Origin: Escherichia phage ECp13
DNA: 64,000 nt
Reading direction: 5' to 3' (one strand)
Sequence record: PP274704.1
The notes under the pieces are model-generated. The model saw only the letters and a program-made list of their open reading frames with translations, searched no databases and had not been told where the DNA came from. Within the stretch, counting starts at the first letter, position 1, and each line of letters begins with the position of its first letter. Position numbers and translations under genes: made by a program. This document shows, piece by piece, positions 50,389 to 54,100 of this stretch.

Positions 50389-51180
50389 TTATACTCTTGA
50401 ACCATATATTGCTCCAACATTCTGCCATGTTGGAGCTGATCCTGCTACAGCAGCACCAGGATTTGTCGGAGGTGTTGAATAACCAGAACCTGGATTAGCA
50501 TATTGACCAGGTTGACCAACTTCACCACCGCCACCTGCATAATACCCTGTACCAGTATTACCGCCAGCACCCGGAGACGTCAAACTAGCATTACCACCAG
50601 GCCATCGAGCACCATTATTTCCGCCTAAGCCGAATGGACGACCGCCACCGCCGCCACAAACATATTTTCCCGCCCAGTTGTTGGCTTGTGAATAACCACC
50701 GCCGCCACCGCCGCCACCGGCAATAGCTCCGCCATTATTAATTCGCAGACGTCCACCTATATCATTCTGGATACATACACCGCCATCAGATGCTCCAATT
50801 GCACCAGCGGCCCAACCATTCCCACCACGACCATACATCGTTACGCCGTGTATGTTCAGTTGAACGTATTCATTAGGTGTATCTCCGTACATGAAGAATA
50901 AAGGAACATCTCTAGAATATGATACTAAATCTCCAGTAATATTAAACACTATAGGTGCACTACCTGCCTCAAAACATCTATCTCGGAACCATTGACCATT
51001 GAAGTTATGGTCTGCTCCAAGTGTATGAATTACTTCAACAGATCTACCTATCATATTACTCATCCAAAATGGAGCACCCATTCTTAATCGTTGGGCCGCG
51101 CCACCCATCCAATTTTGTCCTGTATTAACTACTGCAGACGATCCTACCCACGGTCCTGTTACTGCCATATAAACCTCCAA
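50389..51180 (-). CDS. 38: gp38 receptor-binding adhesin, T2-type with glycine-rich motifs
   Basis: 263 aa; poly-Gly runs ([22 protein letters not shown]) separating variable segments. Confidence 0.8.
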
Positions 51181-51195
51181 GGGGCCGAAGCCCCT
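51181..51195 (-). other. Hairpin in the 37-38 intergenic spacer
   Basis: minus strand reads AGGGGCUUCGGCCCC, followed by GGAGG SD of gene 38. Confidence 0.3.
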
Positions 51196-51199
51196 CTTA

Positions 51200-54100
51200 T
51201 TATTTTAACAATGATTTAACTAATGCTTTAAGTTCTTCGATTTCTGATTTAAGTTCTGCAATTTCTGCGGTATGCTCATTGATTGCAGCTGTATTTAAAC
51301 CAATTACACCGTTATAGTTCAAACGAAGTAAAGCTTCACCATCAGGGTCACCTTCAACTAATTCTGGTAAAATAGCTTGAACTTCTTGAGCAATTAAACC
51401 GGCGTTAGGTTCCCATTTCTGATTACCTTCCTCATCCAGGCCTCGCTTCTGCATATAAGTGTAACCGTTAATTTTAGAAAGCTTCTGAGAAGCATTTTCA
51501 AATTTAACGAGGTCTTTTTTAACGCGAATATCAGAACGGACATAAACATCACGGACAAACGTTGAATATGCATCACTCTGTTGGATTAAATGACCAAAAG
51601 AAATAATAGCTCTTCCTTGCTCAGTCCACAAAGCACCAGTAGTATCCCAAAGACCTTCATGGAGATGATAAGCAGATGACCATGAAGCAATATGAACACC
51701 ATTGGCAACCATATTGATTCGGCCATCACCGCCATGGACTAAACCAGTATCATTATCACCAATAACAAGACATGGCCCAGTCCACACCGGGTCACCACCG
51801 CCAGCTGATAATCTTGCTCCAGTTTGAACCATGTTAGGAACAAACAGAGTTCCATTATAGTGGAATTCATATACAGCTTGCGGGTCAGAACCATTTTCCT
51901 GGTTACCTACACGAATAATACCTTGCGCCCAGTTATTAGTAGTGCGTCGCATACCAAAATCTACGCCGGAAAAATATCCTTCGTTAGTAATACCAGATTT
52001 TCCTTTAATAATAGGATAATAGCAGTCATTGCTGACGGATCCAAAATCTACAAATATCGGAGCTTCTAAACCCCATTGGTCACCAAAGGCGCCAGATTTA
52101 TGCGCAACCCATTGTGTACCGTTTATATGAAGGCGGTCTCTATTAAAATTAAATGTTCCTTGACCTTGAGGAGAAAGCGATATTTCGCCGTTATTTGTTA
52201 TGTATACACCGCCTTGTGTAATGTAACTATAAAAACCTAGACCATTATCGCCGCCGCCTTTGCCTATATACCAGTTACCTGTACCACCTACATCACTACG
52301 GATGTGCGATGAAGCACCCGCACCTGCAGTTAAAATAAGGGCATCATTTCCAGCAGATAAAGTCAACTTACCGGTCATCGTATCGCCTTCTTTAGAAACA
52401 CGAGTAGCTATTGCATCACGAATATTTGTAGTGTCTCCTGCTGAAGTAAACGATTTCCAAATATCAGACCAGATATTACCATTTCGAGCAATAGTAGCTT
52501 CACCACCGCCAACCTGAACATTATCAGGGAAATTAACTGTACCGTCAGCATTAAATCTTGATGTATGGCCTTGTGAACCATCTTCTTTTAAATGATGTAA
52601 AACAAATGTACCTGAATTAATTTCAGTACCTAAAGACCAAACAGCTTTACCGTTTAAAAACTTCTGTTTAACAATAGGATAATATTTACTTATAGCATCA
52701 TCATCAATTTCCTGGAAAACAGGAGCTGCTTGAACATACTGAATATCATAACCACCCGCGCCTGCTCCATGACCGCCAAATCTGATATACCCGTTTGCAG
52801 GGAATCCGGCATAGCTCAAATCTAGGTCAGGAATAACGACCTTACCTGTATCTAAAGACATACTAAATGGACGAAGTGGACCGATATCGCCATTTTTGCC
52901 TTCACCATAGGCAGTTGGAATAATATGAAGACTGTTTTCTGAACGACGGAAAATGGCACCATAATCTGCGTTCCAAATGCGAAGCGCATTCACCGCTCCA
53001 GATGAAATTTCACCTGTTGTGTGAACTCCTCTATTTCCAGCAGTAACACCAGATGATTCAAATGAACCGTTAACGTTCATTTCTACTTCACCGGTAGTAA
53101 GTCTTTGAATATAGCTCATCCAACTAGTTGCATCAGAAATTTCCATGACATTTTTACGATTACCTACACTAGGATTAGTAAACGTGTTACCCCATACGGA
53201 AATTGTCATATTATCAACTGAACTACTACCAGTTGTGTTACCTCTAAACATCAATGTAGAAGAATTATTTCTACCATCGATATTAACAGAACCACCAATA
53301 ACATCAATATTACCAGGAGTAACTAATAATCCTCCAGCGGTATTAATATTAGTTGTTCCTCTTCCACGAAAATAATGATGATATCTACCGCCTTGATAAT
53401 ATCCCAAAAGAGTCTGACCATCTCCAAACGCGTTATTATCATGATATGTAACAACAGTAGCGAGAGCATAATTTTCAGTAGGAGGAGTAGTTAAATCGGT
53501 TCCGTTAGTAGAATATCCAGCTACAAATTTTCTTAGGCTAGTTGTTTCGCTAGGGCTAAATAAAAATGTTTTCGTTCCATTATTGACGCTGAAATAATAT
53601 CCATCCTGGTGCCATTTAAATCCAGTATCATTATCTCCTAAAGCAATACTAGATGGTCCTAGTATTGAATAATCTTTATTGCCAGGTGTTAAACCGATAG
53701 AAATTGAGTGACTCGATTTAATTCCGCCGCTCCATGTAAATGACCAAAGATAAGCGTCTAGCCCATCTCCGCTGTACCAAGTTATTCCATCATTATCTTT
53801 AACTTCATGGAAAATGCCAGAACCGACTGCATTACGCATGACACGGAGATGATTAATAGCAGTAGTGCTTTCAGACAGTGGAACATTATCTGCCATCGAA
53901 TAAATGTCATAATCACCTGTAGATTTATTATTAGTAATGACTTTGTTGGTCAAAATCTGAGGAGTTGACATAGATTTCCATGCTGATACTTCAGGTGAAG
54001 TAAATAGGCCATTGCCTGAAAATGCATAAGTGCTTTCGCTACCAGCGGCGTAGTCTTGAACCCTGATATTAAGTACTTGTGTAGTTAATCCATCATTAGC

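Follow-up and report, generated by a model that had tools for sequence, protein, structure and literature searches.

The long tail fibre of Escherichia phage ECp13 ends in a host-recognition tip of T2 type, not T4 type. In the 64,000-nucleotide stretch of DNA analysed here (sequence record PP274704.1; hereafter, the window), the minus strand carries the distal part of the T-even long-tail-fibre operon, and the region under study (50389-51600) comprises gene 38, coding for the tail-fibre tip adhesin gp38 (50389-51168, minus strand; stop codon at 50389-50391; 259 aa), together with the final 133 codons of gene 37, an open reading frame (ORF) of 1103 aa for the precursor of the distal fibre subunit gp37 (51200-54511, minus strand; stop codon at 51200-51202). 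We propose that gp37 is a self-cleaving fibre protein capped by the adhesin gp38, and that the resulting T2-type tip binds OmpC; we put the probability of this reading at roughly 0.93. It is carried by the domain content of the two proteins, the catalytic residues of gp37, the conserved tryptophans of gp38, the order and co-occurrence of the genes and the near-identity to solved structures, all of them observed directly, and no finding contradicts it.

Profile searches place gp38 in the T2/T6 family of adhesins with poly-glycine motifs, as had been proposed from the sequence in the original prediction. The Pfam domain GP38 (PF05268) matches with E = 3.6e-72 (243.2 bits, cut-off 25) over its whole length (profile positions 1-218 of 218), and Gp38_N (PF21721) matches residues 1-40 with E = 1.8e-21 (76.3 bits, cut-off 25; positions 1-40 of 40), so that the thresholds of both domains characteristic of T2/S16-type adhesins are exceeded. 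Because the scores of GP38, Gp38_N and, in gp37, Peptidase_S74 all lie above the curated Pfam cut-offs, a chance match is excluded. The glycine runs G8 (aa 151-158), G5 (172-176) and G4 (212-215) are accompanied by shorter GG/GGNG motifs; glycine accounts for 24% of gp38 and for 33% of residues 113-259, and this content explains the local GC peak of 0.49 versus about 0.35 in the genome. Alternation of glycine motifs with variable segments was defined as the adhesin architecture in earlier work (PMC3157838). For sequence comparison of gp37 and gp38 we used phages T2, T6, PP01, AR1, Sfk20, pSs-1 and S16, leaving out the gp38 proteins of Ox2 and K3. Residues G151-157 and G172-176, the GRGGNG motif (113-118) and, at the C-terminus, AP.WQNVG.IYG.RV are unchanged across the window, PP01, T2 and T6, with the segments between them varying.

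The alignment with T2 and T6 anticipated in the original prediction runs the full length of gp38, at 49% and 64% identity, respectively, and that with PP01 reaches 96%. The entire protein also aligns with S16 gp38 (6F45_D, E = 6.6e-53), and residues 37-259 match PDB chain 9V85_A with E = 4e-143. The latter structure shows the receptor-binding domain of PP01 gp38 fused to sfGFP (PMC12892980), and its crystallised part (residues 41-259 of PP01 gp38) is identical to the window at 222/223 positions. A single residue separates gp38 from its homologs in Sfk20 (A32I) and pSs-1 (V46I), five residues differ from AR1, and nine N-terminal residues plus S228A from PP01. The adhesin ORF had been recognised correctly, but its proposed length of 263 aa has to be revised to 259 aa: the TTG codon that would give the longer protein (51180-51178) overlaps the Shine-Dalgarno sequence GGAGG (51178-51174), which lies 5 nt ahead of the ATG at 51168-51166, and every annotated relative (PP01, Sfk20, pSs-1 and AR1) has 259 residues. 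The TTG start was therefore ruled out.

The second half of the module is the C-terminal domain of gp37. A profile search with the last 133 aa confirmed that this region, as suggested from the sequence alone, is an intramolecular chaperone of the S74 type: PF13884 ('Chaperone of endosialidase') was retrieved with 52.7 bits and E = 5.1e-14 (cut-off 22), and with 47.5 bits when whole gp37 was searched. Pfam domains in the full-length protein are Gp34_trimer (aa 450-550) and Peptidase_S74 (aa 993-1052); the chaperone domain as a whole, predicted to be autocleaved, extends over aa 993-1103 (111 aa; 51203-51535, minus strand). Motif alignment puts the predicted autocleavage site between R992 and S993 (site and residue pair at 51518-51538, minus strand), with Ser993 (51533-51535) at position 1 of the Pfam profile and Lys998 (51518-51520) five residues on, a spacing which we take to be that of S911/K916 in the K1F endosialidase. 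The cleavage motif, DVYVR^SDIRVKK (^, scissile bond), aligns with DLNVS^SDRRIKK of S16, and the block VY(V/I)RSD.R.K is common to the window, PP01, T2 and T6, with both the serine and the lysine invariant. The two motifs with which gp37 had been said to end are indeed present, at aa 989-1001 and 1037-1052, but they are followed by 51 further residues.

Homologs of solved structure point in the same direction. The final 190 aa of gp37 match the S16 gp37 construct 6F45_A (E = 3.1e-43), and a profile built from four chaperone domains (window, PP01, T2 and T6) retrieved from the PDB 6F45_A (1.9e-30), the autoprocessing domain of MYRF (7DC3, 1.7e-9) and the tail fibre 8JOV (2.6e-8). The same PDB search did not reach the K1F endosialidase and T5 fibre chains, and the link to the K1F/T5 chaperones is made via the Pfam family only. 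Within the close relatives the domain is nearly unchanged, with 110/111 residues identical to Sfk20, pSs-1 and PP01 (Q1016E) and 108/111 to AR1. The gp37 proteins of T2, T6 and PP01 carry S74, whereas T4 gp37 lacks it and has Collar and fibre repeats instead. In S16 the last 113 residues of gp37 are autocleaved between the two serines after trimerisation, which exposes the docking surface for gp38 (PMC7917993, citing Dunne et al. 2018), and removal of the C-terminal domain has also been described for gp37 of T2/T6 (PMC3157838, citing Drexler et al. 1986). By analogy, gp37 of the window is very probably self-processing and sheds the folding domain at its C-terminus, the predicted products being mature gp37 (residues 1-992) and a free 111-aa fragment (993-1103).

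These similarities suggest a scenario in which cleavage, the 3:1 stoichiometry of the tip and the receptor are all extrapolated from homologs. As in S16 and T2, gp37 would be made as an 1103-aa precursor, in which the chaperone domain would act as the nucleus for the distal beta-helical fibre to trimerise and fold; Ser993 and Lys998 would then cut the Arg992-Ser993 bond, releasing the chaperone, and the exposed trimeric end of gp37 would be capped by one gp38. The attachment domain at the N-terminus of gp38 (aa 1-40; 51049-51168, minus strand), delimited by Gp38_N, would contribute a three-helix structure from which Trp7, Trp20 and Trp35 enter gp37, each in one of three equivalent hydrophobic pockets. 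These three residues are invariant in the window, PP01, T2 and T6 and align with tryptophans of S16 gp38 that are seated in pockets of the gp37 trimer (PMC6851490). The remainder, the receptor-binding domain (aa 41-259; 50392-51048, minus strand), is expected from the identity to the PP01 crystal structure to combine a beta-helix with a polyglycine-II sandwich of the kind described earlier (PMC6851490), and, as in PP01, this sandwich would display loops A-E to OmpC. By analogy with S16 (6F45) and PP01 (PMC12892980), gp38 is probably present in the virion as a fibre-tip monomer that binds the receptor.

The variable segments of gp38 had been put forward as the likely determinants of receptor specificity, and they coincide with loops A-E of the PP01 crystal structure (PMC12892980). 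With the residue ranges of PP01 mapped to the window, the loops lie, all on the minus strand, at 50797-50814 (A), 50659-50688 (B), 50602-50619 (C), 50542-50559 (D) and 50476-50496 (E). In PP01, loops D and E touch loops 5 and 7 of OmpC, and Ala228 at the tip of loop E fits a hydrophobic cleft of the porin; valine or leucine is tolerated at this position, whereas aspartate or a deletion abolishes infection (PMC12892980). Loops A-D of the window are identical to those of PP01, and the only difference in the receptor-binding domain is Ser228 in place of Ala228. The 38-aa C-terminal stretch that includes Ser228 recurs with 100% identity in Sfk20 and pSs-1, both Shigella phages, and equally in PEC04 and HY01, which are O157:H7 phages, and in an E. 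coli phage isolated on an MTCC strain; residue 228 was accordingly ruled out as a host marker. Since Ser/Ala228 does not track the host, OmpC remains the best prediction for the receptor.

How secure is this reading with respect to its alternatives? One of them takes gp38 to be an assembly chaperone of T4 type, absent from the virion, and leaves receptor binding to the C-terminus of gp37. The name of the gene and its slot between genes 37 and t, the same as for T4 gene 38, would fit, but the proteins themselves do not. BLASTP of gp38 against T4 gp38 (183 aa) revealed no similarity (the best hit, over 26 residues, has E = 17). T4 gp38 matches none of the Pfam families and so has none in common with a protein that matches the adhesin domain at 3.6e-72 and is near-identical to a crystallised receptor-binding domain. 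The Collar and His-rich needle domains seen in T4 gp37 are missing from gp37 of the window. A full-length alignment with T4 gp38, which would have spoken for the chaperone, was looked for and none was found, in line with the original prediction, and we regard this alternative as effectively refuted. According to another view, the S74-like domain of gp37 is degenerate and non-cleaving, and is kept in the mature fibre in a structural or receptor-contacting role. Cleavage is a prediction here, and some S74-family domains in other proteins lack the catalytic residues. However, Ser993, Lys998 and the surrounding block are intact and invariant in all four phages compared, a retained domain would block the end at which gp38 docks, and the domain is removed both in S16 and in T2/T6 (PMC7917993, PMC3157838); retention is thus highly improbable.

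A self-cleaving gp37 capped by gp38 would also be compatible with a receptor that is not OmpC, or not OmpC alone, such as another porin or a lipopolysaccharide (LPS) core sugar acting as co-receptor. This possibility draws on the substitution of the very residue that occupies the hydrophobic cleft of OmpC in PP01, on a possible contact of PP01 loop B with LPS (PMC12892980) and on the fact that both Shigella and E. coli O157 served as isolation hosts for the closest relatives. We nevertheless consider it unlikely, given that only one residue, in loop E, sets the five loops apart from those of PP01, that the Ser228-containing C-terminus recurs in PEC04 and HY01, phages of O157:H7, and that a receptor is shared among closely related gp38 adhesins (PMC12032242). 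A milder variant, which we find doubtful, is that the polar Ser228, replaced by Ala228 in the O157-restricted PP01 and AR1, broadens or shifts recognition between OmpC alleles of Shigella and O157; if true, it would be part of the reason why relatives such as HY01 are reported to infect both Shigella and O157. Returning to the OmpC-binding T2-type tip as a whole, several observations weigh against it. Serine is not reported among the substitutions tested at position 228 of PP01 (PMC12892980). Single-sequence AlphaFold2 modelling of the last 133 aa of gp37 produced a confident helix for the final ~25 residues, but with a mean pLDDT of 50.7 the model is too poor to confirm the fold. Finally, the mature tip of gp37 contains a 12-aa insertion relative to S16, just upstream of the docking region, and for this reason the docking geometry is assumed, not demonstrated.

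We also asked how consistently the two parts occur together. Scanning IMG/VR with the gp38 alignment recovered 26 metagenomic loci with a gp38-type N-terminal domain, and in 26/26 the gp38-type gene is preceded, at a distance of no more than about 40 nt, by the stop of an ORF that has the chaperone domain at its end (hmmsearch threshold E <= 1e-25; values from 1e-64 to 8e-27); in the window, the gap between the gp37 stop codon and the gp38 ATG is 31 nt. At one locus (L006, 4477-4966) the chaperone domain just upstream of gp38 is split over two frames, the pieces scoring 1.3e-34 and 3.2e-25, owing to a frameshift or sequencing error. RB43-like contigs (L020-L024, about 150-5520) contain two consecutive fibre ORFs, each with a terminal intramolecular chaperone domain, and two further loci (L025 and L027, 4992-6200) have two tandem ORFs bearing the gp38 attachment domain. 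This domain is thus also combined with tips of other, non-polyglycine kinds. The attachment motif of gp38 (its aa 1-43) turns up, at 53% identity, in the tail-fibre adhesin of Salmonella phage SSU5 as well (NC_018843.1, 25776-25904; hit H102). SSU5 is not known to be a T4-like phage, so the docking domain may also have reached phages outside Straboviridae.

In the nearest clade (Sfk20, pSs-1, AR1 and PP01), conservation is highest in the block made up of the chaperone domain and gp38, with DNA identity mostly in the range of 94-100% and one exception, the bin covering the N-terminus of PP01 gp38 (85%). Further upstream in gp37 the identity falls to 61-79%, at a place that differs by phage. In pSs-1, where gp38 and the chaperone domain show ~100% identity, it drops to 74-76% just upstream (51589-51888; gp37 aa ~875-975); in Sfk20 it is 68-79% in the proximal shaft (53450-54050; aa ~150-350), and in PP01 61% around aa ~500-550. 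This variation is the usual mosaicism of tail fibres. Within gp38, an identical 16-nt sequence, CCGCCACCGCCGCCAC, is present at 50642-50657 and 50702-50717, where it codes for parts of the G5 and G8 runs. Such intragenic microhomology could support recombinational shuffling of the intervening variable segments.

The short intergenic region between the gp37 stop codon and the gp38 ribosome-binding site GGAGG is predicted by RNA folding to form a stem-loop, GAGGGGC-UUCG-GCCCCUU (51179-51196, minus strand; core GGGGCTTCGGCCCC at 51181-51194), with 7 bp and a UUCG loop (z = -2.1 for a 61-nt stretch), a stable hairpin of the C(UUCG)G type. The hairpin is kept in T2 (GAGGGC-UUCG-GCCCUC), T6 (GGGGC-UUUG-CCCC) and T4, the stem having changed on either side. 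It is probably one of the well-known intergenic UUCG hairpins of T4, and it may stabilise the mRNA or modulate translation of gp38. A consensus search for the T4 late promoter, TATAAATA, gave no match in the gap that separates genes 37 and 38, and none directly upstream of gene 37; the nearest copies on the minus strand are at 55200-55207, upstream of gene 36, and 60270-60277, upstream of gene 34. In the absence of a late promoter between genes 37 and 38, gene 38 is presumably co-transcribed with genes 36-37.

The remaining genes of the locus, all on the minus strand, are gene 34 (56363-60235, ORF of 1290 aa), gene 35 (55239-56354, 371 aa), gene 36 (54520-55176, 218 aa) and the holin gene t (49702-50358, 218 aa), and the order 36-37-38-t agrees with the annotated records of T2, T6, PP01 and T4. 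Overlapping ORFs in other frames (e.g. 50291-50482 on the plus strand and 51394-51576 on the minus strand) were dismissed as by-products of the coding frames. The source of the stretch is a Tequatrovirus of the pSs-1/Sfk20/AR1/PP01 group: at the DNA level the region shares 97-99% identity with three Shigella phages and with AR1, HY01 and PEC04, which are phages of E. coli O157. The Shigella phages Sfk20, pSs-1 (Tequatrovirus pss1) and KNP5 come nearest (98.2-98.9% across the region), while PP01 stands at 95.5%. For gp37, amino acid identity is 95% to Sfk20, 95% to pSs-1, 92% to AR1 and 87% to PP01.

The T2-type host-recognition tip is an ordinary, well-studied textbook module and, as such, already known: the adhesin concept dates from 1985-87, the processing of gp37 from 1986 and the structure of the tip from 2018, and a structure of nearly the same receptor-binding domain followed in 2026. 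Its practical value is that OmpC as the receptor and E. coli O157/Shigella as the likely host range can be predicted from nothing but sequence. It also defines the unit to be swapped in host-range engineering, either the gp38 loops or the block consisting of the gp37 chaperone domain and gp38.

Among known systems, T4, with its assembly chaperone gp38 and the needle tip of gp37, has genes at the same operon positions, but the sequences are unrelated. Endosialidase K1F, the L-shaped fibre of T5 and MYRF (7DC3) share with gp37 the C-terminal place of the chaperone in a trimeric fibre, the Ser-x4-Lys arrangement and PF13884, although the sequence similarity is only distant; in addition, release of the chaperone in the window would create a dock for a separate adhesin, rather than exposing the binding tip of the fibre itself. 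The Henning-laboratory adhesins of T2 and T6 (Trojet et al. 2011, PMC3157838) are alike in two-part architecture, gene order, S74 domain, glycine motifs and the C-terminal APxWQNVG.IYG.RV, with gp37 lengths of 1341 aa in T2 and 994 aa in T6 as compared with 1103 aa in the window. Their variable gp38 segments are unrelated to those of the window, consistent with different receptors. In the S16 gp37-gp38 tip (6F45; Dunne et al. 2018), the three tryptophans, the G8 run (151-158), the other glycine motifs and the cleavage motif are all in register with the window, while the variable loops differ, gp37 of the window has the 12-aa tip insertion, and arginine rather than serine precedes the scissile bond. 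The closest counterpart is PP01: its gp38 (9V85; mBio 2026, PMC12892980) has the same receptor-binding domain, with loops A-D and all glycine-rich motifs, and in gp37 of PP01 and AR1 the S74 domain and the cleavage motif are as in the window.

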